Shown here in pieces: positions 7,416-36,024 of a DNA stretch of 64,000 bases. The first letter of the stretch is position 1. The number at the start of each line of letters is the position of its first letter. Source of the DNA: a virus (lineage: Duplodnaviria > Heunggongvirae > Uroviricota > Caudoviricetes); IMG/VR virus record IMGVR_UViG_2703718833_000007, positions 6,191 to 70,190 of that record; one strand, 5' to 3'. A program made the position numbers and the translations under genes. Below the pieces are notes generated by a model. That model worked only from the letters and a program-made list of their open reading frames with translations, searched no databases and had not been told where the DNA came from.

Positions 7416-7512
7416 CAGCGTGATTGCGATCACATGAACATACATTTTGTGTTGTGATTGCATATCCGTTTTGTAAACTTAAATTAAAGGTTTACATCGC
7501 GGAGGAAAGTAA

Positions 7513-7732
7513 GATGGAACGTGAATACATGCTTTATTGCGTTGAGGGTGGCGTAGGTAGCGATGCCTACGTCGCCGGGAAAAGCTATCCAGCAGATGAA
7601 GTGCTTTCTAATATGCACTTCCGTGAAAATGAAAACCAGGTGTCTGTGTGGAAGCGATGCGTTGATGGTATTGAAGTCGTTAGCCTTGAAAGATATTTGG
7701 GTAAATTCGACTACGGATTAATTGAGGCTTAA
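7513..7732 (+). CDS. Hypothetical protein (73 aa from MEREYML)
   Basis: Track ORF 7424-7732 trimmed to internal ATG preceded by GGAGGAAAG SD. Confidence 0.35.
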
Positions 7733-7830
7733 CTATGGACGAATCATTGCTATTCATGTGCATTTGCTGGGGTTTTATTGCCTTATGCCTGTTTATCAGG
7801 TGGTTTATTGAATACCACATGAGGTGATAT

Positions 7831-8025
7831 ATGGAACAGAAAACTGATTATAGAATACCTGACAACCTGAAATTGGTTGGTATTGGTTTTGGTTGTCGTT
7901 TTGTATCTGACGTAAACGGGGCTATTTATTTAGTGCGCATCATTGATGGCGTTCAGCATATAAGAAGGCTAGGACTTTATATCAAAGCATTCAGGAGAGG
8001 TTATTTGAAAACTCATGAAATTTAA
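7831..8025 (+). CDS. Hypothetical protein
   Basis: Track ORF 64 aa. Confidence 0.3.
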   Translation: MEQKTDYRIPDNLKLVGIGFGCRFVSDVNGAIYLVRIIDGVQHIRRLGLYIKAFRRGYLKTHEI

Positions 8026-8218
8026 ACAGTATAAAGAATGGAAGATTCCAGAAGAAGCAACAAAGGCAGCGCCAGGAAGTTTTTCTGGCGTTTACTTTTA
8101 TATGGGTGGTAAATGGTATTTCGGCAGCAGGCCGGATCACTATTATCAAGAAGTATGCAAATCTCACACCTGGGATATTAATGAACGCGTGCAAGGTGGT
8201 GTAATAGACGAGGTTTAA
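8015..8218 (+). CDS. Hypothetical protein
   Basis: Track ORF 67 aa. Confidence 0.3.
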   Translation: MKFKQYKEWKIPEEATKAAPGSFSGVYFYMGGKWYFGSRPDHYYQEVCKSHTWDINERVQGGVIDEV

Positions 8219-8219
8219 A

Positions 8220-8456
8220 ATGGTTAGGGCTTTTTTAAAGTGGTTAGGTGAGTGGCTTTTGGCTACGCTTTTCGTTTTTTTGACGTTCATTGCAGTAATG
8301 ATCATCTTTCTTCTTTCCATGATGTTCCTTACATGGTCAGTACCAGAGTTTATGGATATTGGTAAGGTTCTTGATTTCGCTCGTGCTTTGTTGCTTTGTA
8401 GTGCATTTATTGGTTTTTGCAGGACTGTTTCGCCTGATTGGGATGATGAATGGTGA
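8220..8456 (+). CDS. Hypothetical membrane protein (2 predicted TM helices)
   Basis: Track ORF 78 aa, hydrophobic segments LLATLFVFLTFIAVMIIFLLSMMFL and ALLLCSAFIGF. Confidence 0.35.
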   Translation: MVRAFLKWLGEWLLATLFVFLTFIAVMIIFLLSMMFLTWSVPEFMDIGKVLDFARALLLCSAFIGFCRTVSPDWDDEW

Positions 8457-8460
8457 TCCT

Positions 8461-8694
8461 ATGGCCTTGTTCAATATGTCAGAGCCGCAATTTAACGCCG
8501 TAAAGACTGCCGCCCGCGCAGCGCTTTCGGCCTGCAAAGCGGAAGTAGAGAAAAACGGCTACAGCGATAAAGCTACGCGGCTGATATTAGAAAAGCATTA
8601 TCGCAAGGTCGCCCCACTAATCAGCATTGAGCGCTTTGTGTGGTTGGTGGGGTATTTAAACAACCGTTGGGGAACGGAACAGGATTATTTCTAA
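8461..8694 (+). CDS. Hypothetical protein
   Basis: Track ORF 8359-8694 trimmed to ATG after upstream stop. Confidence 0.3.
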   Translation: MALFNMSEPQFNAVKTAARAALSACKAEVEKNGYSDKATRLILEKHYRKVAPLISIERFVWLVGYLNNRWGTEQDYF

Positions 8695-8703
8695 GGGGGC
8701 GTA

Positions 8704-9243
8704 ATGAAAAATGATTTTGGAGGCAGCCACACTCCTAAGGAAATTAAAGATCTATGGCAGACGCCTAAACCAGTTTTCAGAGGAATGGATCGGGAATTTG
8801 AATTCGTCGCGGATGTGGCGGCAAACAAGGCAAACGCGCTAGTTCCGCGATATATAACCGAAGAAATGGACACGTTGCATTATCCGTGGGGAGCGGTGGC
8901 AATGCCTGGCGAGTATGTCTGGCTTAATCCGCCATATTCTAAACCGGGGCCATTCGTTGAGAAGGCGGCATTAGAACATCAACGAAATCACATTGGCTGT
9001 GTAATGCTGTTGCCCGCTGACATTTCTGTTAGCTGGTTCATGAACGGCGTGGAGACGGCAAACGAATGCCGATTAATCACGCGCGGGCGTCTGGCGTTTA
9101 TCAATGCTGAGACAGGGAAACCAGCAAGCGGAAACAACAAAGGCAGCTTGTTTTTGATCTGGCATCCACGGTGCAGACATGAATGTATTTTTACGCAGAT
9201 AACACGTAAAGAGCTATATGCAAGAGGTGCAGATAATGACTAG
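8704..9243 (+). CDS. Phage DNA N6-adenine methyltransferase (Dam-like, orphan)
   Basis: Track ORF 179 aa with catalytic NPPY motif (WLNPPYSKPGPF); no adjacent restriction gene. Confidence 0.8.
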   Translation: MKNDFGGSHTPKEIKDLWQTPKPVFRGMDREFEFVADVAANKANALVPRYITEEMDTLHYPWGAVAMPGEYVWLNPPYSKPGPFVEKAALEHQRNHIGCVMLLPADISVSWFMNGVETANECRLITRGRLAFINAETGKPASGNNKGSLFLIWHPRCRHECIFTQITRKELYARGADND

Positions 9244-9664
9244 TGCGGCAGATTTACTACGAATCGCAGCGGAAACAATAGAGCAAAGGGGTAAACAAAA
9301 CGGATACGACAGAAAAGAGGAAAAATCAGCGCCAAAAATAGCCACTATTTACAACGCTAAGAAGGGTACAAATTTAACCCCGCTTGATGTATGGGATCTG
9401 TTGATTTGTCTCAAGGAGGCGCGTTTAGAGGCCATTTTGGTAAATGGTTCTGACCCTACTGATACTTTGGTTGACTTGATTAGCTACAGCGCACTAAAAG
9501 CTGAGCAGATATTAAGCGATCATGAGGAAGAGCAAAAGAAAAAACAGTTCACTGCTCTTAATCCTCAATGTGGTTGTATTTCAACTCGGCTTGATTTGAG
9601 TTTTGACAGATCTGAAGCTATTCGCGATAAGAGGTATGACCCAAATGAAAAAGGTGGCAATTGA
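9236..9664 (+). CDS. Hypothetical protein
   Basis: Track ORF 9218-9664 trimmed to ATG (MTSAADLL) overlapping Dam stop. Confidence 0.4.
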   Translation: MTSAADLLRIAAETIEQRGKQNGYDRKEEKSAPKIATIYNAKKGTNLTPLDVWDLLICLKEARLEAILVNGSDPTDTLVDLISYSALKAEQILSDHEEEQKKKQFTALNPQCGCISTRLDLSFDRSEAIRDKRYDPNEKGGN

Positions 9665-10148
9665 CAGGTTATTAGCCTGCGTTTATGTCGCCGTTTTCGT
9701 GATCATCAACCTTATTGTTAACCATTGCGGCCCGTGGGTAATTCCGATCACCACGGTAGCCGCTGTGTGTGTCAATATGATGATCCGTGACTTCTTGCTG
9801 TATGACGGCGGCTTGAAATGGTCTGCTACAACATGCGCCGCCGCTGGCGCAATCACGGTAATGATAAATTACGATGCTGGAATGGTAGCGATCGCGTCAT
9901 TCGTTGCGGTTGTTTCCGGTGCGCTTATATCTGGAGGTGTTTACCGGGTTTTGCCTGGTGATTTCGATTCTAAGCGCTGGCCTGCAAACATAGCTTCAGC
10001 CATCGGGGATGCGTTAATTTTCCCGACGCTATCGTTTATGGCGTTTATGCCGGAAATATCAGCGATGCAGTTTATCTCAAAAATGGCAGCGGTAACGGTG
10101 ATCACTATCATCATGCGCCGCTATTTCACGTTTGAGGGTAGAAAATGA
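9645..10148 (+). CDS. Multi-pass inner-membrane protein, possibly VUT/YhhQ-like (queuosine-precursor transporter family)
   Basis: Track ORF 9603-10148, start taken at MKKVAIDRLL with AAGAGG SD; 4-5 hydrophobic segments; family assignment from loose pattern resemblance only. Confidence 0.35.
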   Translation: MKKVAIDRLLACVYVAVFVIINLIVNHCGPWVIPITTVAAVCVNMMIRDFLLYDGGLKWSATTCAAAGAITVMINYDAGMVAIASFVAVVSGALISGGVYRVLPGDFDSKRWPANIASAIGDALIFPTLSFMAFMPEISAMQFISKMAAVTVITIIMRRYFTFEGRK

Positions 10149-10672
10149 ATTGGGATGATTATTTTATATACAATCCGGACACAGGTAAGTTGTACTGGAA
10201 ATATAGAAATGACATAGAAGAATCAAGGCGTAAACAATGGAATGCGTGTAATGCTGGTCATGAGGTTGGACATATTGGCGGAAGCGGTGGGTGTCTTAAT
10301 ACAGCGCTTACCGTTGGCGGAAAGCGTTATAATTTAAAAGTACATAGAATATGTTACGAGATGTACTATGGGCCAATACCTGAAGGTAAGGAGGTTGATC
10401 ATATAAATCACGTTAAAACAGATAATCGAGCCGTCAATCTTGGATTAAAAGACCATAAAGATAATATGCGCAACATGTCTTTAATGGTAAACAATACCAG
10501 TGGGTGCGCTGGTATCCATAAAAATAAACATGGTAAATGGGTTGTTAGAATCGGTGGAGGCAAAAGAGGTAATAGAATTTATATAGGGTGTTTTTCTGAT
10601 ATCAATGACGCAATAAAAGCTAGGCGCGACGCTGAAAGAAAGTATGGCTATCATGAAAATCACGGCAAATAG
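10145..10672 (+). CDS. HNH homing endonuclease (HNH_3 + AP2-like DNA-binding domain), paralogue 1 of 4
   Basis: Track ORF 175 aa; INW-DYF start motif, GPIPEG-EVDHINH HNH core, C-terminal AP2-like (AGIHKNKHGKWVVRI). Confidence 0.85.
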   Translation: MNWDDYFIYNPDTGKLYWKYRNDIEESRRKQWNACNAGHEVGHIGGSGGCLNTALTVGGKRYNLKVHRICYEMYYGPIPEGKEVDHINHVKTDNRAVNLGLKDHKDNMRNMSLMVNNTSGCAGIHKNKHGKWVVRIGGGKRGNRIYIGCFSDINDAIKARRDAERKYGYHENHGK

Positions 10673-10869
10673 AACAACCACGCCACCGCCGCGCGGCTTT
10701 GCCCGTGCTGTATTCCTGGCTAACGACCGGGCCATCAATCGTGCTACGCTCAACCGCGTTTTACCGGACTGAAATTTACAAAATGGCGTCATTGCGTGAT
10801 GTGGATCACATAATGGCGCTTTTCACCTTGTTCTGACGTATCCGTTTTGTATACTTCAAACAAGCAAAA

Positions 10870-10902
10870 TGCTCTTTAAAAATCCGGCAGCGCTGAAATG
10901 CG
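10870..10902 (+). promoter_or_regulatory. Second boxA-like element (TGCTCTTTAAAAA) with weak downstream hairpin; possible nutR analogue
   Basis: boxA-like 10/13 match; only a 3-bp stem CGC-UGAAAU-GCG follows, so weaker than site at 3064. Confidence 0.25.
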
Positions 10903-10931
10903 TAGAAATCACCTGAAAAGGAGAGAGCATT

Positions 10932-11108
10932 ATGCCTTTTGATAATTACCAATGGCATGACGACTATGAACGAGAAAGCGTCATGCGTGCAATGTGCAAT
11001 GTATGCAGCACGAAGAAAGGAGACTGCAACGAGTGCAACGAATGTTTAGATCATTGGCTAAGGGCCGGACACGCCGAAAGGCGGAGCGAAACAGAAAATC
11101 AAAAATAA
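10932..11108 (+). CDS. NinF-like small Cys-rich protein (putative)
   Basis: Own translation MPFDNYQWHDDYERESVMRAMCNVCSTKKGDCNECNECLDHWL...; GGAGAGAG SD; directly upstream of ninG. Confidence 0.3.
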   Translation: MPFDNYQWHDDYERESVMRAMCNVCSTKKGDCNECNECLDHWLRAGHAERRSETENQK

Positions 11109-11122
11109 TCGGGGTGATTTTT

Positions 11123-11728
11123 ATGCAGAACCCTAAAAAACCCATAAGACGCCGTTGCAAATGCTGCGGCGTTTTTTTTGAACCTAAATATCACAATCAA
11201 ACGTGGTGCAGCGATGAATGTCTGGAAGAACTGAAGTTTGATCAGCTATGCCGCGATCGTGAAAAGGCTATGAAGGCTATGGAGCGGAAGAAACGCCGCG
11301 ATAGCCAGCGTGAGGAACGCAACCGGAAGCGGAAGCAGTTAAATCCGCGTAGTTATTGGTTAAAGCAGGCGCAAAACGTGTTTAACGCATATATTCGCGA
11401 ACGTGACGCAGGACAGCCGTGTATATCTTGCGGGACTTATTATTATGAGCAATGCGGAGCAGATGCGGGGCATTACAGGACGGTAGCAGCAGCTGGACAC
11501 CTTCGATTTAACGAGGATAACGTAAACCTACAATGTCGACATTGCAATCAGGTATTAGACGGAAACATAGAGGCATATCGTCCGGCACTGATTCGAAAAA
11601 TTGGCCTTGCCAGGGTGGAGGCGTTGGAGAACAACAACGAAACCCATAAATGGACGATCGAAGAATGCAAGGAGATCATTAAAGTTTACCAGGCGAAATT
11701 GGACGCCCTAAGGAGAAAGGCGGCATGA
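11123..11728 (+). CDS. ninG: NinG/Rap-family recombination-associated protein
   Basis: Track ORF 10994-11728 trimmed to MQNPKKPIRRRCKCCGVFFEP; Cys clusters and YRPALIRKIGL region typical of lambda NinG. Confidence 0.75.
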   Translation: MQNPKKPIRRRCKCCGVFFEPKYHNQTWCSDECLEELKFDQLCRDREKAMKAMERKKRRDSQREERNRKRKQLNPRSYWLKQAQNVFNAYIRERDAGQPCISCGTYYYEQCGADAGHYRTVAAAGHLRFNEDNVNLQCRHCNQVLDGNIEAYRPALIRKIGLARVEALENNNETHKWTIEECKEIIKVYQAKLDALRRKAA

Positions 11729-12132
11729 ATGAATATACATTTAGCCTACCTTACCCGCCATCGAATAATAGGTATTACCGGCATTCACGAGGTTTTCATT
11801 ATATCAGTAAAGTGGGGAAAGAATACCGGGAACAGGTAAGAGACATCATCGAGCTATTAAATTTAAACATCAACCTATCTTGCCGACTGGCAATTACCAT
11901 TCATGCCGCGCCGCCGGATAACCGGATAAGAGATCTGGATAATATCACCAAATGCCTTTTTGATAGCCTTACTTACGCCGGATTCTGGACCGACGACGGG
12001 CAGATCGATTCTATAAAAATTGTTCGCTGCCGGAAGGTAAAAGGCGGGCGCTTGTTTATTAAGATCCGCGAACGCGGCGACCTACTACCGGATATTGACG
12101 AATACGAGACTAATATGTGGGGTGAGCAATGA
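11725..12132 (+). CDS. rusA: RusA-family Holliday-junction resolvase
   Basis: Track ORF 135 aa; LPYPPSNNRYYR...GFHYISKVGKEYR and DLDNITKCLFDSL motifs. Confidence 0.85.
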   Translation: MNEYTFSLPYPPSNNRYYRHSRGFHYISKVGKEYREQVRDIIELLNLNINLSCRLAITIHAAPPDNRIRDLDNITKCLFDSLTYAGFWTDDGQIDSIKIVRCRKVKGGRLFIKIRERGDLLPDIDEYETNMWGEQ

Positions 12133-12311
12133 AAAACGAAGTTAAAGATCTGCAAATAGATATTCAGTGCGATGAGCATGATTTAGCTACAGTCAGAAAA
12201 ATCCAGGCTTTTCATATGCGAGAATTGCTTGCATTGAAAGAGCTTGAGAGGAAGTTAGTCCAGTCTATTTCTGATCGTAAACGCCTTATTGCTCGTTACG
12301 GGGGCAAATAA
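12129..12311 (+). CDS. Hypothetical protein
   Basis: Track ORF 60 aa between rusA and Q. Confidence 0.4.
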   Translation: MKNEVKDLQIDIQCDEHDLATVRKIQAFHMRELLALKELERKLVQSISDRKRLIARYGGK

Positions 12312-13033
12312 TGAATCTGGAGTCAATTCTTAAATTCCACTTCCCAAAATCACCGCATTTGTCAGATGAAAGTCGTGGCACGTCACCGGACGCGCTTAAT
12401 ACTACGGATGCGCTAACTGCCGCTGGTATGGCGCAATCGCGCGTAGAGCTTGGTTATAGCGCTTTTTTAGGGAAGATGGAACTATCACAAGCCGAAAAGC
12501 ACAGGGCCGTAGTTTTGCTTACAGAGCGTTTAAGAGCTATGGCAAAAGATTATAAATACGTTATGGAACTGGACGAGGTGCGACGAAATGATCTCATTAT
12601 TCTTGTTGCCGTTTTCGCATTTCGGGATTATTGCCAGAGTGCCGCGACGGAAAAAACTTGTATGGAGTGCGGCGGATATAAATTTACGTTTGACGAGTAT
12701 GGGGAAAAACACCTTTGCAAAAAATGCAAGGGGCATGGGAAAGTTCTTAATCATTGCAAACAATGCAAGGGCCGTGGAGAAGTGCCTGATAAAGCAGCCA
12801 GCGAAGCGGCGGAAATGCCCGTGTTCAAAACGTGCCAGCATTGCGGCGGGCGCGGGTACTCGCGTTTCCCTGTAGATCTTGTCCGGCAGGCGGTTAATCA
12901 GCTTGTCTTTCCTGTAAGCCGATCAACATGGTGGAAGAAATACCGTGCTTTCTATGAAGACGCCATTGCTGAATTGTTCAAAGAAGAGGCGCGGGCTGAT
13001 AACGAAATTAAACGAGTGACGCGGGGTGAATGA
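12311..13033 (+). CDS. Late-gene antiterminator Q (lambda Q family)
   Basis: Track ORF 240 aa; N-terminus MNLESILKFHFPKSPHLSDESRGTSPDALNTTDALTAAGMAQS and zinc-finger region closely parallel remembered lambda Q. Confidence 0.85.
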   Translation: MNLESILKFHFPKSPHLSDESRGTSPDALNTTDALTAAGMAQSRVELGYSAFLGKMELSQAEKHRAVVLLTERLRAMAKDYKYVMELDEVRRNDLIILVAVFAFRDYCQSAATEKTCMECGGYKFTFDEYGEKHLCKKCKGHGKVLNHCKQCKGRGEVPDKAASEAAEMPVFKTCQHCGGRGYSRFPVDLVRQAVNQLVFPVSRSTWWKKYRAFYEDAIAELFKEEARADNEIKRVTRGE

Positions 13034-13233
13034 TGGATAAGCTGGAAATAAACGATAAGTTTGCCGTTATCTTGTTCGAAGATAAAACGGGCGGTGCTTG
13101 GTGTAAGAAAGTTACTGGTGCTGAAGCGCGTTTAATATTGGGCATGGCAAGCGCATTAAACGAAGGTGAATTGCCAGCCGTGCCAGTTAAGCCAGTACAT
13201 ATTTACGGACGGAGCAAAGACAATGAAGCCTAA
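13030..13233 (+). CDS. Hypothetical protein
   Basis: Track ORF 67 aa; ATGA overlap with Q stop. Confidence 0.4.
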   Translation: MMDKLEINDKFAVILFEDKTGGAWCKKVTGAEARLILGMASALNEGELPAVPVKPVHIYGRSKDNEA

Positions 13234-13492
13234 ATTAAAAGAACATCTATTTGCAAAGCTGGTTAATGACCTGACGTTATCAGCGCGGTTGTGCGGTGAT
13301 ACGCAACAATTGAGGGCATGGATAGCAAGGGATTTAAAAAAATATATTGAGCCTGGCGGGCCTGGTGACGAAATGACTATGGACAAGGCCATCAATCGCC
13401 GTTCGGCTGAATGGTCAGTGAGTAACACCGGATTAACCGGATACATTGAAGGCTATAACGACTGTTTACAGGATCATAGCGATGGCAAATAA
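13223..13492 (+). CDS. Hypothetical protein
   Basis: Track ORF 13166-13492 trimmed to MKPKLKEHLF. Confidence 0.35.
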   Translation: MKPKLKEHLFAKLVNDLTLSARLCGDTQQLRAWIARDLKKYIEPGGPGDEMTMDKAINRRSAEWSVSNTGLTGYIEGYNDCLQDHSDGK

Positions 13493-13781
13493 ACACTTAC
13501 ATTTGAATTTAAAAGGAGAATACTTCCACGCTATCAGGGCGGGGAAGAAGGTCGAGGAATACCGGCTTTATAATGACTATTGGCGCAAACGCCTTGAGGG
13601 GCGCGACTATACAAGATTGATTCTTAAATGGGGATACCCTGCAAACGACGATAAGGAAAGAATCCTTGTTCTCCCTTACATGGGGTACAAGATAAAGACT
13701 ATTCAGCATCCTTTGTTCGGTGATGAACCTGTTAAGGTTTTTGCTATCCACTGCGATATTTATTGGCAATATAGGTTTTAG
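13482..13781 (+). CDS. Hypothetical protein, possibly ASCH-like
   Basis: Track ORF 13446-13781; LHLNLKGEYFHAIRAGKKVEEYRL resembles ASCH beta-barrel N-terminus. Confidence 0.35.
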   Translation: MANKHLHLNLKGEYFHAIRAGKKVEEYRLYNDYWRKRLEGRDYTRLILKWGYPANDDKERILVLPYMGYKIKTIQHPLFGDEPVKVFAIHCDIYWQYRF

Positions 13782-13784
13782 AAT

Positions 13785-13997
13785 ATGAAAAGTAACCGCA
13801 AGCGCCTTGTAAGGGCATACGACAAAGCATTAAAGGCTTTTGATGATCTGCGACGCAATAAGCGCCAGCGCCGTAAAGTTGCGCGCATGTTTGTAAGGTG
13901 GTTGCATAATGAGGATTATTTCCTTAATGCTAGGCACATGACGCAGGATGTAGCAGACGCATTGGCTGACGAGAACGTTTATTATATGATGTGGTGA
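13785..13997 (+). CDS. Hypothetical protein
   Basis: Track ORF 70 aa. Confidence 0.35.
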   Translation: MKSNRKRLVRAYDKALKAFDDLRRNKRQRRKVARMFVRWLHNEDYFLNARHMTQDVADALADENVYYMMW

Positions 13998-14001
13998 TAA
14001 T

Positions 14002-14588: not shown

Positions 14589-14598
14589 TGGGGTAAAT

Positions 14599-14829: not shown

Positions 14830-15056
14830 TGAAAGTCAAATTCTTGCACGATCACGGTTATCCATCACTGAAACAGGTTGTTGGTAAGGTTGTTGATGTA
14901 GTTCATAGCGATAATGTCACTTGCATGATTAACGGTGCTGACCTAATTGCCGCTGGCGCTGATGACCATTACATAAATCCGGCATGGTCGTATACGTTCA
15001 GCCTGGGCGACTTCGTTGGCGACAAGGGGCGCGGGCTGGAAGTAGTCGAGGGTTAA
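14829..15056 (+). CDS. Hypothetical protein
   Basis: Track ORF 14814-15056 trimmed to MKVKF (ATGA coupling). Confidence 0.35.
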   Translation: MKVKFLHDHGYPSLKQVVGKVVDVVHSDNVTCMINGADLIAAGADDHYINPAWSYTFSLGDFVGDKGRGLEVVEG

Positions 15057-15741: not shown

Positions 15742-16153
15742 TGTCGTTTACATCAATAAATGTGATCTACCACGCAAAGTTTACGAAATGGCATTGTTTC
15801 GGCAGTGCCATTTTGTTATATATAAGCCACTGAAAGACGGATGGTGCAAAATCATGAAAAGCGACAAATTCATTGCGTGCTGTTTTGTTGAAGTGCCTAA
15901 AGGTGATTTTTTCTTCAATTATGAATTTAAAGATAGTTTAGGAAGATCTCATGTTGTCGCTGGTAAGCGTGGAGACTGGTTGTATATCACTGATGGGGAC
16001 AGGATCTTCACTAAAAACCAGTTATTCAGAATAAAGGCAGAAAATAATGAAATACCAGTAGGCAATATGGGGATTATGAATTATCACGCTGGTTTATCGT
16101 TAAAGCACGATGCGGTAAATAAAGCGCGTAGCTTACCTGGTGCGGAGTTTTAA
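15728..16153 (+). CDS. Hypothetical protein (start uncertain)
   Basis: Track ORF 141 aa. Confidence 0.35.
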   Translation: MLSGNVVYINKCDLPRKVYEMALFRQCHFVIYKPLKDGWCKIMKSDKFIACCFVEVPKGDFFFNYEFKDSLGRSHVVAGKRGDWLYITDGDRIFTKNQLFRIKAENNEIPVGNMGIMNYHAGLSLKHDAVNKARSLPGAEF

Positions 16154-28841: not shown

Positions 28842-28843
28842 CA

Positions 28844-29390: not shown

Positions 29391-29392
29391 TC

Positions 29393-29866
29393 ATGCCACT
29401 GAAAGGCGTCAGGCGTGTCCGTATGAAAATGACGGAAGAAATCAGGAATATAGCAGACAAAAAGACTTATGAAGTGCTATGGATTGTTGGCAATGTCGCG
29501 TCCGGCCTTGCATCTGGAATGACGCCAGTTGATACGGGTTTTTTAATTAACAGCATGTATCAGACAGTTGAGAAAAACGGTAACGGACTTTGCCTCAGGG
29601 TTGGATATACCGCCCGCTATGCTGAATGGGTGCATGACATGCCAGGTACATTAATGGGACAGCCTCGCGAGCATTTCGGGAAAACCAATAACCTTTCGGA
29701 TTTCGGCCCGAAACAGGTAATTGAGTTCGGCGGCGGTACTGGCAAGGGTGATTACTGGGATCCAAACGCAGAACCTGAATTTTTGCGCAAGGCGTTCGAG
29801 GAACCAGATAACTTCAATGAAATCTGGAACACGATCAAACTTGGATACTGGACGAAACAATCATGA
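29393..29866 (+). CDS. Head-tail joining protein (HK97 gp10-like, putative)
   Basis: Track ORF 157 aa; position. Confidence 0.4.
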   Translation: MPLKGVRRVRMKMTEEIRNIADKKTYEVLWIVGNVASGLASGMTPVDTGFLINSMYQTVEKNGNGLCLRVGYTARYAEWVHDMPGTLMGQPREHFGKTNNLSDFGPKQVIEFGGGTGKGDYWDPNAEPEFLRKAFEEPDNFNEIWNTIKLGYWTKQS

Positions 29867-30249
29867 AACGCAGCGAAGTATACGATGAAATAAGGGATTG
29901 GATTAAATCCCACGGGTACGACGAAGGTTATATTTTGCAGGCCCGTTTCTGGAATGAGCGATCCAATTCTAATAAAGACAGATACATTGTCATACAGCAA
30001 AACGGCGGCGCGGCTGGAGAAGAAGCAATAACCCGTGACTATTTCCGCATCCTGGTTATTTCAGCGCGCAATGACGCAAATATCAGCGAAGTGGAAGACC
30101 TCGCCGATGCAATACGGCAAAGTATGATAACCGAATATAAAACTGATAAAATTACACACATGAAGCCAGTTGGCGCTATTCCTGCAATGCAGACAAGAGA
30201 AGGGCGCTTTATTTTTACCGTAGCTTTTCAAACCATCATATCAAGATAA
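29863..30249 (+). CDS. Tail completion/terminator protein (putative)
   Basis: Track ORF 128 aa; position before major tail gene. Confidence 0.4.
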   Translation: MKRSEVYDEIRDWIKSHGYDEGYILQARFWNERSNSNKDRYIVIQQNGGAAGEEAITRDYFRILVISARNDANISEVEDLADAIRQSMITEYKTDKITHMKPVGAIPAMQTREGRFIFTVAFQTIISR

Positions 30250-30262
30250 GAGGTAACTAAAC

Positions 30263-30739
30263 ATGTCTCAGACTTGTGATAAAGGTTCGTTCTTAGGCCG
30301 CGACGTTGCCGTATTTTACGCTATCGCTTGCCCTAATGCGAAACCTAATGACGAAGCATATAAAGCGTTAGGCATGATGCGTGGTAAATCGCTTTCCGTA
30401 GAATGGGAAACCGCAGACGCCACCGCTGATAAATCAGCAGACTACACGAAAGAATCATTGGTAACTTACAAATCTGTTGCCTTCTCAGGTGACGGCGTAT
30501 CACGCACCGAAGAAATCCACAACCAGAAGGCACTTAAACGCCACGTTATTAACCCTGGCGAAACAACAGGTGCGCAGCCTTACGTCTGGTTGAAACTCGT
30601 TTCCCCGCTCGATGTAACCGAAGGTCCGTTTCTTTGCACCTCATTCAAAGAGGAGGATCCGCACGATGATGTGTCCACCTGGTCCATTGAATGCGAAAGC
30701 GCTGGCAAAGTCACGGTAGGTGACGTTCCGTCAGTGTAA
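30263..30739 (+). CDS. Major tail (tube) protein
   Basis: Track ORF 158 aa; followed by terminator; position. Confidence 0.65.
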   Translation: MSQTCDKGSFLGRDVAVFYAIACPNAKPNDEAYKALGMMRGKSLSVEWETADATADKSADYTKESLVTYKSVAFSGDGVSRTEEIHNQKALKRHVINPGETTGAQPYVWLKLVSPLDVTEGPFLCTSFKEEDPHDDVSTWSIECESAGKVTVGDVPSV

Positions 30740-30756
30740 CAGCAAATATTAACATC

Positions 30757-30782
30757 GGGGCCATTTGGCCCCTTTATTTTTT
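30757..30782 (+). terminator. Rho-independent terminator after major tail gene
   Basis: ggggcc-attt-ggcccc hairpin followed by tttatttttt. Confidence 0.7.
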
Positions 30783-31475
30783 ATGGTGACAGTTATGATC
30801 CATGTTCGAACAGGACAATTTGCGGTTGTTGTTGATGGCAGGCGTTACGAGTTTAACCCCTGCTTTGCTGCAATGGCTAAAATAGGCAGTGACAGAGAAC
30901 TGGTCGAATACTTCGCAACGGTGCACGGTGGCAAATATCCATCACGATTGCCAACGGATACAGACCTACGCAATCGCATTCTGGCGCGTTGTTATGGTGA
31001 ACTGGTGCAAACGTCCATCCACATACTTAAATGTTGCTCAGAATGCGAAATAGGCCCGTTATTGGGCGAATGTAGCTTTACTCCTTCTGGTAAGTTGAGA
31101 CTTAAACCTGGATTGATGCCCACCAGCGACGTTATCACGCTTGCGCAGCACTGCATGTTCCACGGTTTAATTGGTGACGGACCGGAGGAAGACGTTGGCG
31201 ATGAGCAGGAAGGCGACTATAAACAGACTTTTGACATCCTTGAATACGTTTACTCTGCCGTTGCTCACCTGGGATTGTCTGAATCTGAAGCATGGGGCAT
31301 GACAATGACCGGATACAGGGCCGCTGTACGCGCTAAAACGCCACCAGACGAAAGAAACGAGAAACGTAAGCCAAACGTTCATATAAATAAACGTGATTAT
31401 GATGAGCAAATGGAGGCCGCTAAAAGGGTGCTGGAATTGATGAAAAAACGCGAGCAAGAAAAAGCCCGGAATTAA
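30783..31475 (+). CDS. Tail assembly chaperone (putative, position-based)
   Basis: Track ORF 30765-31475 trimmed to first ATG after terminator. Confidence 0.4.
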   Translation: MVTVMIHVRTGQFAVVVDGRRYEFNPCFAAMAKIGSDRELVEYFATVHGGKYPSRLPTDTDLRNRILARCYGELVQTSIHILKCCSECEIGPLLGECSFTPSGKLRLKPGLMPTSDVITLAQHCMFHGLIGDGPEEDVGDEQEGDYKQTFDILEYVYSAVAHLGLSESEAWGMTMTGYRAAVRAKTPPDERNEKRKPNVHINKRDYDEQMEAAKRVLELMKKREQEKARN

Positions 31476-31490
31476 CCGGGCCTTTATCTT
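31459..31490. terminator. Bidirectional hairpin terminator between convergent genes
   Basis: gcccgg-aattaa-ccgggc with T-tracts on both strands. Confidence 0.55.
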
Positions 31491-31792
31491 TATTTGTATG
31501 CTGCAAATCTGCATCTTGCCTCATCCAGATCGTGAATATCGTACACGTTATCGTAAATGTAAGTTGCAACCTGTGCTTTCTGTACGTCAGTTGCGTTAGG
31601 GAACTCCATGCTTACAAAAGTCACTGCATCAACGTAGTTCTTAAACATTTTTTTGTTAACGCACAGTGCGTAAATCAATACACCAGGCCAGAAAATCAGC
31701 GCGCCAATGAATGCCATGAGCATATTCAGATGTTTTTTCTGCGCTACAGCCATAGTTACTACGAAGCCGATGAGTGCAATTACCAGTTCCAT
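31490..31792 (-). CDS. Opposite-strand moron: membrane protein (2 TM) with soluble C-terminal domain
   Basis: Track ORF 100 aa; GAGAGGTG SD; inserted between tail chaperone and tape-measure genes. Confidence 0.5.
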   Translation of the reverse strand: MELVIALIGFVVTMAVAQKKHLNMLMAFIGALIFWPGVLIYALCVNKKMFKNYVDAVTFVSMEFPNATDVQKAQVATYIYDNVYDIHDLDEARCRFAAYK

Positions 31793-32167
31793 GATACACC
31801 TCTCATTTACGTTTATCTTCGGTTGTCATTGCCAGCACTAGCACAGCCATCACATTAAATGCTAACCATTCTGTAATATATACATCTATAACCGTTTTGA
31901 TTGCGTCCATTTACCCGCCCCGCTTATTTCTTGTTTTTAAGTGCTTTCAGCATTTCTTCGATAAAGTCGGCATAGTGCTCATGCTCGTTGGGTCGGTAGT
32001 AGTTTTTCATTTTCTTATCCTCTTTTGCTTCCTCCGGTTAATCCGGCCTTCTAAATCCCTTTACTCTATCCCTTTCCTTTAGCCTCTTTATACAAAATGT
32101 ATTCGTTGAAGTGAAGCCATTTTGTATAAAATAGAGATCAGGATCACACTTTTTACGAGGTTAAATC

Positions 32168-34513
32168 ATGGCTACCAGTTTAGGTACAATTTATTACGAA
32201 GTTGATGCAAAAACTGGTCAACTTCTAGTCGCTCAGAGACAGGCTGATCAGGCTTTTGACAGTATAGAGCGCGGCGCAAAACGTGCCGACCGCCAGGTGA
32301 ACACGCTTAAGACTTCAATCAAAGCACTATCCAGGGTCATCCATCTGTTACTTGCTGCGGAGGCTGTGCGCCAGTTTATTGACATGGCGGAGCAAGCAAA
32401 AATGCTTCGTGTCAAAATTAAAATGCTCACAGGTGACGCAGAGGCTGCAGGACGTGTTTTTGACGGCCTGAAAAAAATATCAAAGGAAACCGGGCAAAGC
32501 CTTAAAGACACTGGCGAATTGTGGCAGGGCCTGGCTATTTCACTAAAGAACACTTCCGCTACGGAAGGCCAATTGCTCAACCTGGTTGGCACTATTCAGA
32601 AGATGGGTGCGTTAGGAGGCGCGTCAGCGGAACAGATGTCTAATTCTATGCGCCAGTTCCGCCAGTCTATAGACGGCGGCGTGCTGCGTGCTGAAGAGTT
32701 TAACAGCCTGTTAGAGAACACGCCGACCATCGTACAGACAATGGCCCGCCATATGGGGTTGTCAATGGGCCAGTTCCGCGCCGAAATGCTGGACGGCAAG
32801 ATCACGGCTGAAAGGATGGTTAACGCGATTCAGGCAGCTACACAGGAAACAAACGAGAAGTTTGCACAGTTGCCGCGCACGTCCGGCAAGGCTATCAATG
32901 AGCTTAAAGTTGAGGTGATGGGACTTGTCGAACAGTTAGACGATCTTTTCGGCATATCAGATGGCGTTGTGTCGGCAATAGACTTAATCACTGGTGGCGT
33001 TGAGGGATTAGGTAAAGGCGCAAAATTCGCCGCAACATGTTTCAATACACTAAAAACGGCTGGCAGTGAGTTCATAGACATGTTTGACGACGTGGCTGTT
33101 AAGGCTGGCGAGGTGGCGGAAGAAATCATTAGAATGGTAACGCCAATCAAGGCGCTAATGGATGGCTACAAATGGATGAAGGAGATTGTAGGAAAGCAAA
33201 CAGAAGAATATAACACCAATTATGAGAAGAAATACGGTAAAAGACTTGGTAAGGGAATGCAATTTTGGGATGATTGGCAGGCCGTACTTAACCAAACAAA
33301 AGAAAACAAAGGAACCGACACCGCTAACGACGGCAAGATCACCGGATTCGAGCCGCCAGTAGATAAGCCAGGAAAACCGAAAAAAGGCAAAAAAGACAAG
33401 AAATCTGAAGCTGATCGGCTTGGTGATGAAGGTGTAAGTGTCTCCGACCAGTACAACAAAGACGCCGCCGCTATGCGTAAAGCACTGGAGAACGGCAAGG
33501 CCATTGACGCTGCGTTTGCTCAGGGCAAAATAACCCTCCTTGAGTACAAGGCAGCGCAAAAGGGGATAGGCAAGGAACTGAAGGACGAATTGGCACAAAT
33601 CCCGGTAGAAGAATTGCAGGACAAATGGGCGCACATAGTAAGCCCGATGGATCAGCTTAAGGGCGAAATTGACCCAATCAAACAGGCGCAGAATGAATGG
33701 GCAGTAAGAAAGCAAATGTTATTAGACCTGGGCGCTACAGAGGCGCAACAGAGACAGGCGCAGTTAGAATATGAACAACAGATCCGCGATCTGAAGTGGG
33801 AGCAGTGGCAGGCGCAAAGCGACACAAACAGCCTGATCGGTGCTTGTGTTAGCGGCCTCAAAGGTGGCATGGGTAATGCTCTTACCGGCCTGCTAAACGG
33901 CACTCAATCATTAAGCGAGGTTTTCGCCAACCTGGGAAGCAGCATACTTAACACCGTTGGCAACAAACTCTCAGAAATAGCCGCTAACTGGATAGCAGAT
34001 CAGTTAATGATGGAAACGCAAAGCAAGGCTACCCAGGCAAGCACTGCGGCTGGCGCTGTGGCTGCCCAGGGTGAGATCGCGGCAGCGGCGGCCCCGGCAG
34101 CGGCGGCTACGGCTGCATCAACTGGCGGTAGTTGGGCTATGGCTGGTGCTGCGGCGCTTTCTGCGATCATGTCGCTGGCAACGTCAATTTTTGGCGGCGG
34201 GCGTTATAATGGTGGTTCTGTGAATGGTGGTAGTCTGTATCGCGTAGGGGAACACGGAATACCTGAGCTATTCCAGACGAGCAACGGGCGTCAGTATATG
34301 ATCCCTGGGGAAAATGGCAGGGTTATTCCTGGCCGCGATCTTTTCAGTGGTGGCGGCATTAATATGCCTGTTAACATCACTGTTCAGACCACAAACGGGT
34401 TTAGCGACGAGGACAGTCGCAGACTTGAGCAGACAATGGAACGTGTAGCGATGAAAATGATGGCAAGGGAATCGCAACGACCGGGCGGAATGTTGCAACC
34501 TCGCCGCAAATAA
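32168..34513 (+). CDS. Tail tape-measure protein
   Basis: Track ORF 781 aa; helical N-terminal two-thirds, Gly/Ala-rich C-terminal region; position. Confidence 0.9.
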   Translation: MATSLGTIYYEVDAKTGQLLVAQRQADQAFDSIERGAKRADRQVNTLKTSIKALSRVIHLLLAAEAVRQFIDMAEQAKMLRVKIKMLTGDAEAAGRVFDGLKKISKETGQSLKDTGELWQGLAISLKNTSATEGQLLNLVGTIQKMGALGGASAEQMSNSMRQFRQSIDGGVLRAEEFNSLLENTPTIVQTMARHMGLSMGQFRAEMLDGKITAERMVNAIQAATQETNEKFAQLPRTSGKAINELKVEVMGLVEQLDDLFGISDGVVSAIDLITGGVEGLGKGAKFAATCFNTLKTAGSEFIDMFDDVAVKAGEVAEEIIRMVTPIKALMDGYKWMKEIVGKQTEEYNTNYEKKYGKRLGKGMQFWDDWQAVLNQTKENKGTDTANDGKITGFEPPVDKPGKPKKGKKDKKSEADRLGDEGVSVSDQYNKDAAAMRKALENGKAIDAAFAQGKITLLEYKAAQKGIGKELKDELAQIPVEELQDKWAHIVSPMDQLKGEIDPIKQAQNEWAVRKQMLLDLGATEAQQRQAQLEYEQQIRDLKWEQWQAQSDTNSLIGACVSGLKGGMGNALTGLLNGTQSLSEVFANLGSSILNTVGNKLSEIAANWIADQLMMETQSKATQASTAAGAVAAQGEIAAAAAPAAAATAASTGGSWAMAGAAALSAIMSLATSIFGGGRYNGGSVNGGSLYRVGEHGIPELFQTSNGRQYMIPGENGRVIPGRDLFSGGGINMPVNITVQTTNGFSDEDSRRLEQTMERVAMKMMARESQRPGGMLQPRRK

Positions 34514-34519
34514 ACAAAA

Positions 34520-34547
34520 CCCCGGTACAATGCCGGGGCTATTTTTA
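34520..34547 (+). terminator. Rho-independent terminator after tape-measure gene
   Basis: ccccgg-tacaatg-ccgggg hairpin followed by T-rich tract. Confidence 0.7.
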
Positions 34548-34984
34548 GTTGTTCTCAAAACTTGTATATCCTCTTTCAATTTTTCCACCGTGTACGCTTC
34601 TGGCAAATACCGCGTCAGTATACCTGAAAAATGGGCATGTATATGTATCCCCTTTACTATCCATATATTTTAGCACCCATGCTATGCGTTTTACGTTGCT
34701 TTTATTTGCCGGATTTTTCATTTTATTTTTCCTCCGCAAATCACAATCTTCCGTTTCTTGCTATATAGCTGCGAGCAAACATCACCTGCCAGATGTTCCA
34801 AATCTCACGCCACGTAAATTCATCATCTTCCATATCTCACACCATCGCGCTTGTATGGTTCGCCATCAGCAAACGGGATTAACTCATCGTTTGCCACCAT
34901 TCGATTAAACCAGTCTTTCAGAACAACCAGGGAGAACCGGATCCCGTAACTGTGCAATTCGCGCCACCTCATTTATGTGCCACC

Positions 34985-35491
34985 CTATTTACCGTGATTT
35001 GGATGAAAACCGTATTTAATTTCGGATTCTTGCCTTGCCTTGATTGCATCATCTTTGCTTTTGAATACCCCTAAATGTTTTAATTTTCCGTTGATTCTGA
35101 TAACTGCGCACCATTTACGCAATCTTTCAAGCCAATAAACACCAGCACAGCCGGATTTATTATTATGGTTGCGACTTCTGTTGTGGTTATTGTCTTGGCA
35201 GGTAACTAGCCGCAAATTTTCTATATGGTTGTTTACCTTATTGTGATCGATATGATCTATTTCCATTCCTTCCGGGATTGGTCCGTTGTGCATTTCCCAT
35301 ATAATTCTATGCTCTTGGTATATCCTCCTGTTAAACCCTACATGTATATACCCACTTCGTTTATGAAGGCACCCGGCTCGCTTTCCCGCATATCTTGAAT
35401 TCCAGGTTTTGGAAACGCCATTTCTTGGCTTCCATAATATAGCGCCGTCACTGTATATAAAATAATCATTCCAGTTAATTACTTGTGACAT
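34985..35491 (-). CDS. HNH homing endonuclease (HNH_3 + AP2-like), paralogue 4 of 4, opposite strand
   Basis: Track ORF 168 aa; INWNDYFIY, GPIPEGMEIDHIDHN, SGCAGVYWLERLRKWCAVI motifs. Confidence 0.85.
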   Translation of the reverse strand: MSQVINWNDYFIYSDGAILWKPRNGVSKTWNSRYAGKRAGCLHKRSGYIHVGFNRRIYQEHRIIWEMHNGPIPEGMEIDHIDHNKVNNHIENLRLVTCQDNNHNRSRNHNNKSGCAGVYWLERLRKWCAVIRINGKLKHLGVFKSKDDAIKARQESEIKYGFHPNHGK

Positions 35492-35733
35492 CCGCGCACC
35501 CCTGACAATTCATTAAATTTGTGATGCTCGACGATTACCCATGCTTTCAAGTCCTGGCTATAAACACGCCAATCTAAATTGGCGCGGAAGGCGTAGCCGT
35601 AGCCGTCCTTTAATTTTTTGGGTGCAACATCCTTGTTTAAAAACGCGTTCAGAAGTGCTTTTGCTTTTTTGATTACGTGTCCAGGTGCGTTTTTCTGTGC
35701 TTTAAGATTTTTGTCAATCATTACCAATTTCAT
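35479..35733 (-). CDS. Hypothetical protein, possibly RelE/ParE-fold toxin-like
   Basis: Track ORF 84 aa; WRVYSQDLKAWVIVEHH loosely resembles the RelE/ParE C-terminal strand pattern; weak. Confidence 0.35.
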   Translation of the reverse strand: MKLVMIDKNLKAQKNAPGHVIKKAKALLNAFLNKDVAPKKLKDGYGYAFRANLDWRVYSQDLKAWVIVEHHKFNELSGVRGCHK

Positions 35734-35753
35734 AACTCACCCCACGCAATCCA

Positions 35754-35909
35754 TTAGTTGACCACTTTCAGGAAGAAATCACGGTATTCATCTTCTTTTG
35801 CGTTCATCATGAATTGACCGTATTTGAATGCGTCATCAAAGCCTTTTACAATCGCCACTTCCACCTGTTCGAATGCTTTGTTTAGCATTACCACTACATA
35901 GCGTTTCAT
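35754..35909 (-). CDS. Hypothetical small protein (51 aa), upstream partner of the 84-aa ORF
   Basis: Track ORF 35754-35960 trimmed to MKRYVVV with G-rich SD. Confidence 0.35.
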   Translation of the reverse strand: MKRYVVVMLNKAFEQVEVAIVKGFDDAFKYGQFMMNAKEDEYRDFFLKVVN

Positions 35910-36024
35910 GATGCCCCCCCTTTGTTGGTACTTCTTTCTCTTCTTGCTTTCTATATACATCTTGTTATGTCCTGTGTGAAGCCATTTTGTAAACTGGGTA
36001 TAATTCTTGTGACGAAGTTCTCAT

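Follow-up and report, generated by a model that had tools for sequence, protein, structure and literature searches.

Temperate phages place their repressor operators in several ways. In lambda-type switches, the operators of CI are shared by Cro. The immC regions of Salmonella phages ST64T and L encode an HTH_3 plus S24 repressor whose gene is flanked on both sides by arrays of two or three 13-bp sites, (A/G)TAC-N5-GTAT, lying 25-33 bp apart, O2 overlying the -35 and O1 the -10 hexamer. C1 of phage P1, a plasmid prophage, binds 17-bp asymmetric sites as a monomer; more than 14 such operators, single or paired, are dispersed over the prophage and overlap promoters, and their consensus contains a -10-like sequence. 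In mycobacteriophages L5 and Bxb1 (gp71-type stoperators) and Streptomyces phage phiC31 (CIR), one repressor serves tens of short intergenic sites genome-wide; the stoperators of L5 are asymmetric, oriented with transcription, block elongation and do not lie on -35 or -10 hexamers. A different type of element is used by the antiterminator Q of lambda, which binds, in monomeric form, an asymmetric site of 13 bp located between the -35 and -10 hexamers. Phages of the immunity I group have been reported to match lambdoid phages in frequency in human faecal E. coli, and the operators of their repressor have not yet been defined (PMC11893012).

In this study, we analyzed a stretch of 64,000 nucleotides (the window), which contains an E. 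coli prophage of the mEp021 type (mEpimmI). The exact 12-mer CCRTTTTGTAWA occurred six times in the window, where dinucleotide-preserving shuffles predict 0.06 occurrences (none of 100 shuffles reached six), and 11 times with one mismatch allowed (1.97 expected), so that its frequency is above chance. The first-pass annotation had placed this motif upstream of four operon starts, which proved to be incomplete: about 18 related sites are present on both strands, several of them paired 24-25 bp apart. Three of the four copies lie where it had put them (7466-7477, 10842-10853 and 32117-32128), whereas the fourth is at 35982-35993, 20 bp from the position given (35962-35973), and two exact minus-strand copies (2981-2992 and 10775-10786) had been absent from the list. 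The GTGAAG directly 5' of the copies at 32117 and 35982 was found as described, as was the TATAAT after the fourth copy, which is kept in relatives. A 7-bp inverted repeat reported at the first copy does exist (TGTAAAC 7472-7478, GTTTACA 7490-7496), but its second arm reads GTATACA in the most divergent relative and is not strictly kept. Finally, the ACATTTTGTG upstream of the repressor gene (2176-2185) had been taken for a merely similar sequence; it is rather the canonical member. The 13-bp dyad, the O2/O1 pairs 25 bp apart and the use of the same operator by homologous repressors elsewhere had been missed at first reading.

Our results suggest that the motif, including its dispersed copies, is the operator of the CI-like immunity repressor Rep, a reading to which we assign a probability of about 0.7. 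Both halves of the earlier proposal, a phage-specific promoter or a regulator-binding element, would then hold, as the O1 copies overlap and partly form sigma-70 -10 hexamers. The argument draws on sequence and comparison, namely the anatomy of the sites, their -35/-10 register, the 25-bp pairing, their conservation and their co-occurrence with the repressor family. The site type is ordinary, and its distribution is moderately unusual. Coordinates are collected in Table 1.

Table 1. Operator-like sites, promoters and neighbouring features of the prophage (window coordinates; scores in bits).
Feature	Position	Strand	Sequence and score	Context
nutL boxA	2046-2057	-	GCTCTTTAAAAA	downstream of PL
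PL	2163-2158 (-35), 2141-2136 (-10)	-	TTGACC, 16 bp, TAAACT	overlaps site B
Site B	2139-2151	-	CGCCATTCTGTAA	operator-like, O1 position of PL; kept in relatives; left half-site atypical, low PWM score
Site A	2174-2186	+	TTACATTTTGTGA; 11.5 bits	operator-like; out-group form CCATTTTGTGACTTGAATCAA; overlaps -10 of promoter-like TTAACA (2152)-17-TACATT (2175-2180), ahead of repressor gene
Rep	2223-2870	+	recognition helix GITKGGLSHWLNGRREP	CI/LexA-like repressor, HTH_3 and Peptidase_S24; presumed binding protein
Site C (O_R2)	2982-2994	-	ATCCATTTTGTAT; 18.6 bits	last base is first T of PR -35 (TTGACT 2994-2999)
O_R1	3007-3019	+	TTAC-GTGGC-GTAT	25 bp from O_R2; last 3 bases open PR -10 (TATATT 3017-3022)
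nutR1 boxA	3065-3076			after PR
Site P	3447-3459	-	TTACATTTTGTAT; 17.5 bits	isolated; at stop codon of N-like gp17 (3157-3447)
Cassette P_E	7440-7476	+	O2 (D) ATACATTTTGTGT 7440-7452; O1 (E) ATCCGTTTTGTAA 7464-7476	-35 TTGTGA 7452-7457; -10 TAAACT 7474-7479; gene start 7514
Site F	9293-9305	-	ATCCGTTTTGTTT; 13.5 bits	isolated; inside ORF after Dam gene; kept in out-group (L313 7150-)
Site G	10776-10788	-	CGCCATTTTGTAA	64 bp 5' of H
Site H	10840-10852	+	19.2 bits	O1 of P_H; -35 TTGTTC 10828-10833; -10 TATACT 10850-10855
nutR2 boxA	10871-10882			immediately after P_H
Cassette I/J	15781-15818	+	O2 (I) 15781-15793 (T-rich strand minus); O1 (J) TGCCATTTTGTTA 15806-15818	-35 TTGTTT 15794-15799; -10 TATATA 15817-15822
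Cassette K/L	32090-32127	.	K ATACATTTTGTAT 32090-32102, perfect consensus, 21.0 bits; L AGCCATTTTGTAT 32115-32127, 15.2 bits	bidirectional; between leftward gene cluster and tape-measure gene (32168)
Cassette M	35955-35992	+	O2 (M2) ATACATCTTGTTA 35955-35967; O1 (M) AGCCATTTTGTAA 35980-35992	candidate -10s TAAACT 35990-35995 and TATAAT 35999-36004; 5' of minor tail gene (36080)
Sites N and N2	37600-37649	+	N CGCCATTTTGTTA 37600-37612; N2 ATACATATTGTAA 37637-37649, 15.4 bits	overlap -35 (TTGTTA 37607) and -10 (TACAAT 37631) of rightward promoter ahead of tail gene 37716, and -10 of face-to-face leftward promoter TTGATA-17-TATATT (37662-37634)

The closest solved structure to Rep is lambda CI (3BDN), and Rep021 confers immunity (PMC11893012). 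Rep homologues with the recognition helix T(K/Q)G(G/A)(L/V/I)(S/G)HWLN(G/A)RREP are encoded by six independent phages or prophages (Enterobacter L322, Citrobacter L323, Tatumella L324, Serratia L325, Salmonella phage ST64T L327 and Erwinia phage Midgardsormr38 L328), which are unrelated lambdoid or P22-like phages. All six carry ATAC-N5-GTAT three times between cro and the repressor gene, spaced by 33 and 25-26 bp, and two or three more copies with 25-bp spacing either 5' of the N-like gene and boxA or on the other flank of the repressor gene; in the roughly 47 kb of DNA fetched, no copy of 11 bits or more lay outside these arrays. A further homologue (L326), with a P22 C2-type helix, served as negative control and lacked any such site. 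The site sequence thus tracks the recognition helix of the repressor across phages, from which we infer that Rep binds the sites in the window. When a PWM was derived from the relatives' operators alone, it picked out 11 prophage sites scoring 12 bits or higher, where 1.9 were expected (maximum 4), and no site in 15.5 kb of host DNA. Among the 11 are C, P, D, E, F, H, K and L, all copies of the motif; N2 and two others make up the rest. The resemblance to immC of ST64T and L extends from the homologous repressor and its helix pattern to the site, its arrays and its position on the promoter hexamers. However, in the DNA fetched, ST64T and the lambdoid prophages have sites only at OL and OR, whereas the mEp021-type prophage has at least ten further internal copies, most with a degenerate xxCC left half. 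Scans of IMG/VR with the exact 15-mer, a 14-mer and paired copies returned only mEp021 relatives and chance matches in AT-rich contigs, and a literature search for operator sequences yielded nothing relevant.

Could the main binder be another regulator, either a host factor or the Cro-like protein that the leftward operon encodes first? Cro does share the operators of CI in lambda-type switches, and CRP-like palindromes are found beside many cassettes. However, the Cro-like proteins belong to different families (85 aa, without a Pfam match and annotated as MarR-like in the mEp group, but HTH_3 in the out-group and the lambdoid relatives), while an identical site is present in all of them and tracks the Rep helix; we thus regard this possibility as very improbable. 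In a comparison by eye, no match to the IHF, Fis, LexA, CpxR, PhoP, OmpR, TyrR or GalR consensus was seen at the sites. The Cro-like partner probably also uses the operator that we attribute to Rep.

The functional unit appears to be a 13-bp pseudo-palindrome, (A/T)T(A/C)C-RTTTY-GTAW, of which the originally described 12-mer represents positions 3-14. Agreement of the outer positions with ATAC/GTAT was complete at K (8/8), high at C, D, H, P, O_R1 and N2 (7/8), intermediate at E, F, L and M2 (6/8) and A and M (5/8), and low at B, G and I (4/8) and J and N (3/8). The centre, RTTTY, is asymmetric both in the window and in the relatives' operators. Most dispersed copies are poor dyads with xxCC in place of ATAC in the left half, and the five with three or four matching outer positions (B, G, I, J and N) scored below 7 bits with the PWM. 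The strict conservation of CC is not explained by a symmetric dimer site and speaks against the operator reading. Beyond the paired copies, no dyad partner was found at a fixed offset from the 12-mer.

Five pairs in the window are spaced by 24 bp (D-E) or 25 bp (C-O_R1, I-J, K-L and M2-M), whether the T-rich strands are direct or inverted, compared with 25-26 and 33 bp in the relatives. A single 38-bp frame, O2(13)-12-O1(13), accommodates PR, P_E, P_J, K/L and M base for base, together with PL and PR of ST64T and the lambdoid prophages. Orientation varies between equivalent positions, C, I and K being inverted with respect to D and M2, and the register with -35 and -10 stays fixed. The upstream O2 ends on the first T of the -35 hexamer and the downstream O1 fills the last 10 bp of the spacer, its final TAW beginning the -10 hexamer, which is why the motif resembles a spacer plus TAWACT. 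A separation of 24-25 bp, as in lambda, amounts to about 2.3 helical turns and would permit cooperative pairs of dimers; repressor dimers on O2 and O1 would exclude RNA polymerase.

The same resemblance raises the question of whether the motif is simply a sigma-70 core, a TAWACT -10 with a conserved T-rich spacer read by host polymerase alone, whose A-tract acts like an UP element for a back-to-back divergent partner. At B, E and H, a spacing of 16 bp separates TAWACT from a conserved TTGNNN; at B, C, I, L and M, the CC end is 1-2 bp from an opposite -35, so that CAAAA falls at about -40 to -44; and a start codon follows the motif by 34-39 nt at A, E, J and L. However, polymerase needs no invariant CCRTTTYG at -20 to -13, and the -7 T is missing or unconserved at I (in relatives), J, K, L, N, P and F. 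A full core (-11 A, -7 T and a -35 16-18 bp upstream) is present at B, E and H, partial at K and M and absent at C, G, I, J, L, N, P and F. At N the motif overlies the -35 instead of the -10, the mEp group and the out-group have it in opposite orientations 5' of the helicase gene, and the OL/OR arrays of the same 13-mer in other phages with the same helix would be left unexplained. Such a reading therefore seems quite improbable to us. The UP-like, back-to-back geometry was rejected as well: the five contacts between CC end and -35 are the O2 position seen in the wrong frame, and the 13-bp frame gives pairs 24-25 bp apart. In a simple sigma-70 scan and with a PWM, PR ranked first, PL fourth and P_RM twelfth, and most motif copies scored poorly alone.

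In the early region, operator copies are found on either side of the repressor gene, in the intergenic regions, where they overlap the early promoters (A/B, 2139-2186; C/O_R1, 2982-3019). PL is followed by the published nutL boxA, and P_H likewise by the published nutR2 boxA. Comparison was extended to an out-group phage whose Q and Rep are 49% and 56% identical and whose recognition helix is identical. It keeps the sites at orthologous positions: O_R2 is placed in the same way despite a differing PR spacer, the O_R1 equivalent reads TCAC-AAGGC-GTAT, both operators are present in the P_E orthologue (TTGTCT-16-TATTCT), and site P is retained as the DNA sequence ACGTTTTGTATA even though the C-terminus of the protein differs. 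A search for tape-measure homologues, meant to reach the out-group's tail region, returned close relatives only, and the out-group comparison covers the sites other than K/L, M and N.

The conservation data also bear on the view that only the copies at PL/PRM and PR work, the others being relics or passengers of cassettes spread by recombination and serving as module boundaries for mosaic exchange or moron insertion, with repressor control incidental. Mosaic break-points do fall at cassettes: the flanks of I/J diverge completely, the sequence downstream of PR exists in two variants that split about 15 bp past the -10, and relative L316 carries the I/J cassette in duplicate, one on each side of an inserted gene; several dispersed copies are, in addition, weak dyads. 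However, every base of each dispersed site is retained in 10-38 unique relatives, next to intergenic bases that vary, and sites persist in the out-group, where the DNA has otherwise diverged. In these footprints the operator and the TTG of the -35 are invariant and the nucleotides between them vary; at P_H, for instance, TTGTT and the operator are invariant around six variable nucleotides (18-38 relatives). Moreover, the 24-25 bp spacing and the -35/-10 register are kept at every pair, which recombination alone does not require. We thus consider the relic view unlikely, and the dispersed copies (P_E, P_H, I/J, K/L, M, N and the isolated P, F and G) are inferred from these patterns to be functional Rep operators.

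At least ten copies lie at internal promoters, up to 35 kb away. Besides PL/PRM and PR, at least five promoter-operator cassettes with the 25-bp O2-O1 spacing, among them the promoter 5' of nutR2 and the tail-gene restarts, are spread over 36 kb, and they are kept in more than 30 relatives as well as in the distant out-group. I/J forms a conserved island with variable flanks downstream of the Q gene (29 unique orthologues) and is a candidate late promoter. The site of Q-lambda in the PR' spacer is 13 bp long and contains no repeat (PMC9388147), so a QBE for the lambda-Q family protein encoded at 12311-13033 (Pfam PF03589) was considered as well: the asymmetric-looking site of about 13 bp is found in promoter spacers, including those of late-region restarts. 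However, a QBE is single, at PR', and accompanied by a sigma-dependent pause element, and neither feature was seen here: the copies number about 18 and include the early promoters PL and PR, and direct reading of the site contexts found no -10-like pause element at a fixed downstream distance. In a lambdoid Citrobacter phage whose Q is 40% identical, the motif is missing from the Q-lysis gap, and across phages the motif follows the repressor helix and not Q. This reading is extremely unlikely. The cassettes L and M have weak -35 hexamers, and no promoter was recognisable at P, F and G or at the relatives' copies just 5' of the helicase ribosome-binding site. We also rejected the minus-strand sites C, G, I and P as sources of antisense promoters or small RNAs, with no conserved -35 or Rfam match, the -7 T absent at P and lost at I in mEp044 and mEp554, and the downstream sequence of G and I unconserved. 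Rfam likewise gave no match at the sites, and in the window reported only host FnrS (48560-48677) and a sub-threshold Thr leader. CRP-like palindromes adjoin many of the cassettes, and on this ground host factors are probably involved in these regions.

Compared with other dispersed systems, the proposed Rep operators resemble those of P1 C1 in being numerous, scattered and promoter-overlapping, but C1 is an unrelated protein in another regulatory circuit. They differ from L5 stoperators by occurring in both orientations, in fixed promoter register and with lambda-like 25-bp pairing. A broader model, to which we give an even chance, is a distributed immunity circuit in which Rep directly controls at least seven cassettes genome-wide and the 38-bp O2-O1 cassette is a portable module copied with gene insertions. 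Its members would be PL/PRM, PR, P_E, the nutR2 promoter P_H, I/J after Q and the bidirectional tail-region cassettes, the last of which may restart tail-gene transcription after each reversed gene cluster.

An operator consensus can now be proposed for the immunity I repressor, and it could be used to predict prophage immunity specificity from sequence; the compact 38-bp promoter-operator cassette also offers a ready-made regulatory part. If the dispersed copies are functional, Rep would directly silence at least seven promoter regions and not PL and PR alone. Expression of ipe has been reported in mEp021 lysogens (PMC11893012) and, if Rep represses P_E, would need another promoter. A repressor-controlled promoter of its own for nutR2 would be a simple reason for the unusual third nut site of the group. 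The predicted direct silencing of internal, late and tail-region promoters by a CI-type repressor has an architecture that is known in P1, L5 and phiC31 and is unexpected in a coliphage dependent on Nus, N and Q. Under the distributed circuit, the late and tail genes of these phages would be controlled directly by the repressor, and not only through Q.

The first 48 kb of the window constitute a prophage that shares 90-92% identity with the mEp021-type coliphages mEp044, mEp554, mEp010 and mEp021, and 85% with MagusPhagus. The gene for the host sRNA FnrS was found at 48560-48677 (134.8 bits, Rfam); thus, host DNA lies rightward and the prophage ends before ~48.5 kb, in agreement with an integration site in the ydaM region, as reported for the mEp021-type group. 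The published account of mEp021 (PMC11893012) covers a CI-like repressor, Rep021, the N-like antiterminator Gp17 and, as its three nut sites, nutL, nutR1 and nutR2; it leaves operators undescribed, mentions promoters once and states that operator sequences may differ from those of lambda.

The motif CCRTTTTGTAWA occurred six times exactly, against 0.06 expected, and with one mismatch 11 copies were found in the window against 1.97 expected, which bears out the recurrent motif of the first-pass annotation. Three of the four positions given there were correct, whereas the fourth copy lies at 35982-35993 and not at 35962-35973; the GTGAAG ahead of two copies, the TATAAT behind the last copy and ACATTTTGTG ahead of the repressor gene were all present. 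Two exact minus-strand copies had been overlooked (2981-2992 and 10775-10786), and looser searches added further copies, among them those on the minus strand at 2138 (one mismatch), 3445-3456, 9292, 15780 and 32089, and on the plus strand at 7442, 15808 and 37602.

The final bases of the motif, with the two that follow, form TAWACT, a plausible -10, and a TTGNNN hexamer lies exactly 16 bp upstream at three copies (2138 minus, 7466 plus and 10842 plus), two of which are followed by boxA; thus, these copies probably lie in real promoters. Among the remaining copies, some had no -35, some no T at -7, some no downstream gene, and some lay on a promoter -35 rather than a -10. At five places the CC end of the motif adjoined the -35 of an opposite-strand promoter. 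Neither a UP-like role nor antisense promoters accounted for every copy, and the same was true of a binding element for Q, considered because Q of this prophage belongs to the lambda family; the target of lambda Q is an asymmetric 13-bp spacer site (PMC9388147).

The 12-mer corresponds to positions 3-14 of a 13-mer site of the ATAC-N5-GTAT type. A 38-bp frame, O2(13)-12-O1(13), with O2 on the -35 and O1 on the -10, is shared base for base by PR and the cassettes listed in the table, as well as by PR and P_E of an out-group metagenomic phage and by PL of ST64T and four lambdoid prophages. Where the CC end lies 1-2 bp from a divergent -35, the copies are O2 sites. At PL (site B) and at P_H (site H), O1 stands alone in the same register. 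Paired sites were spaced by 24-25 bp with their T-rich strands either direct (D/E, M2/M) or inverted (C, that is O_R2, with O_R1; I/J; K/L), which argues that the dyad frame, and not the asymmetric 12-mer, is the working unit.

Coordinates of promoters, operator-like sites and neighbouring elements in the window
Feature	Position	Description
PR	-35 2994-2999; -10 3017-3022	TTGACT, 17 bp, TATATT; best sigma-70 match in the prophage
O_R2	2982-2994	ATACAAAATGGAT; final T is the first base of the PR -35
O_R1	3007-3019	TTAC-GTGGC-GTAT; 25 bp beyond O_R2; last three bases open the PR -10
P_E cassette	7440-7476	38-bp frame
I/J cassette	15781-15818	38-bp frame
K/L cassette	32090-32127	38-bp frame; both directions
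M cassette	35955-35992	38-bp frame
boxA	2046-2057	GCTCTTTAAAAA; minus strand; position fits published nutL
boxA	10871-10882	GCTCTTTAAAAA, same sequence; position fits nutR2
CRP-like palindrome	7419-7434	
CRP-like palindrome	10795-10810	
CRP-like palindrome	15757-15772	
CRP-like palindrome	32133-32148	
CRP-like palindrome	36008-36023	
CRP-like palindrome	37682-37697	

An 8-bp inverted repeat (TTGACTCG at 2994-3001 and CGAGTCAA at 3024-3031) encloses PR, and a different but equivalent pair (TTGCATTGAA and TTCGAGGCAA) encloses PR of the out-group. At 37631-37639, the junction of a reversed gene cluster with tail gene L, two promoters stand face to face with overlapping -10 hexamers (rightward TTGTTA-18-TACAAT, leftward TTGATA-17-TATATT); the operator-like sites N and N2 cover both promoters.

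Among solved structures, lambda CI (3BDN) is the closest to Rep, the CI-like repressor of the prophage. The N-terminal HTH domain of Rep is nearly unchanged in the out-group, GITKGGLSHWLNGRREP being identical, and distant homologues retain T(K/Q)G(G/A)(L/V/I)(S/G)HWLN(G/A)RREP. We fetched the DNA around such homologues (~47 kb) from six phages that share the helix and are otherwise unrelated, classically lambdoid or P22-like: Enterobacter, Citrobacter, Tatumella and Serratia phages, Salmonella phage ST64T (the record of which notes the similarity of its c2 to c2 of phage L) and Erwinia phage Midgardsormr38. All six carry three ATAC-N5-GTAT copies between cro and the repressor gene, with spacings of 33 and 25-26 bp. 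Two or three more, spaced by 25 bp, precede the N-like gene/boxA; in Midgardsormr38 this second group is instead on the far side of the repressor gene. Typical sequences are ATACATTTTGTAT and ATACGTTTTGTAT, and in Citrobacter TTCCATTTTGTAT and ATCCGTTTTGTAT. As is established for lambda-type immunity regions, such arrays on both sides of the repressor gene correspond to the OR and OL operators. Beyond these arrays, no further copies of at least 11 bits were present in the ~47 kb from the six phages, and a homologue whose recognition helix is that of P22 C2, used as negative control, had no site of the ATAC-N5-GTAT type. The site covaries with the repressor helix.

A weight matrix trained solely on the relatives' operators recovered 11 sites scoring 12 bits or more in the window prophage, against 1.9 expected (shuffle maximum 4), and none in the host part of the window. 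These comprised the motif copies at 2982, 3447, 7440, 7464, 9293, 10840, 32090 and 32115, a new site at 37637 and two others. Five dispersed copies scored poorly on this matrix, and in most dispersed copies the left half is xxCC, not ATAC. Our guess is that the invariance of CC may reflect the GGL-type helix: the Citrobacter phage, whose helix is of this type, has CC variants too.

Four phage records and ~60 IMG/VR loci retain each site at its orthologous position. Footprints of 10-38 unique sequences had an invariant motif and an invariant -35 TTG, with variable flanks and a variable 6 nt in between. Outside the mEp021-type group, the motif occurred at chance level only. The out-group keeps the gene order with much diverged proteins (Q 49% and Rep 56% identical), and has orthologous sites upstream of PR, as a tandem pair ahead of the P_E gene, in the G/H region, within the ORF behind Dam and at the N-like gene's stop codon, where the DNA site is retained though the encoded C-terminus differs. 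About one-third of relatives, including mEp021 and mEp044, lack a 24-bp stretch (10725-10748) that lies between site G and the methyltransferase gene; thus, the sequence leftward of site G is not conserved.

Several other elements were observed nearby. CRP-like palindromes (TGTGA-N6-TCACA, 0-2 mismatches) adjoin nearly all dispersed operator cassettes, and in relatives their arms are conserved and their central bases variable, the signature of a dimeric factor site. Counted from the start of the -35, their centres lie 25.5 bp upstream at P_E, at P_H and at the leftward K promoter, and 35.5 bp upstream at the leftward promoter beside M, spacings that resemble the class I CRP positions -61.5 and -71.5; with respect to the rightward L and M promoters, the same palindromes lie directly downstream of the -10 hexamers. 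A boxA-like TTCTCTAACAAT (17545-17556) stands just before the strong terminator (17575-17593; t5 of the mEp021 papers) preceding the holin gene, with GCGCTTTTAAACAAT at the same place in the out-group; it may represent a fourth nut-like element or belong to the late control region. In the out-group, the H-type promoter is not followed by boxA, and a consensus boxA (CGCTCTTTAACAA; 9385-9397 of its DNA, L313) with a GAAAG-loop hairpin lies between its NinG and RusA genes; thus, the extra nut site has no fixed position in the wider lineage. CTTGCA/TGCAAG repeats in the PL/PRM region (2099-2114, 2132-2137 and 2186-2191), with a perfect palindrome CTTGCA-TCCT-TGCAAG in the leftward transcript leader, may be sites of a second regulator, such as the MarR-like Cro analogue.

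As a type, the site is best read as an ordinary CI/C2 operator like those of ST64T; its sequence was not found in the literature searched, although older phage L literature could contain it. Its distribution differs from that in lambda, P22 and lambdoid relatives, as the window prophage has ~10 extra copies, forming lambda-like O2/O1 pairs at internal promoters in the early, the late and the tail region. P1 C1, L5 gp71 and phiC31 are known cases of dispersed repressor sites, but those repressors are unrelated and follow another site logic.

Recombination may instead have moved cassettes and carried some copies along as passengers. Cassettes coincide with mosaic break-points, and in one relative (L316) the I/J cassette is doubled, flanking an inserted gene. 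In L316, whose Q is 76% identical, the cassette and its CRP-like site lie at 14985-15050 and 15815-15880, with a 251-aa PAPS-reductase-like gene between them, which suggests that the cassette was copied, or served as a recombination joint, upon gene insertion. The -35 hexamers at the L and M cassettes are weak.

Sequence and comparison show the anatomy and conservation of the sites, their register and spacing, and their covariation with the repressor helix. From these we infer that Rep dimers would bind the 13-mers, as the Cro-like protein probably would too, that the internal promoters would be active, and that the isolated sites 3447-3459, 9293-9305 and 10776-10788 would be functional. Occupancy of O1 would block the -10 and that of O2 the -35, by cooperative dimer pairs as with lambda CI. 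Besides PL/PRM and PR, control by Rep would then extend to P_E, to P_H with nutR2 directly behind it, to the conserved I/J island downstream of Q, and to K/L, M and N/N2 at each junction of a reversed gene cluster with the next tail block.
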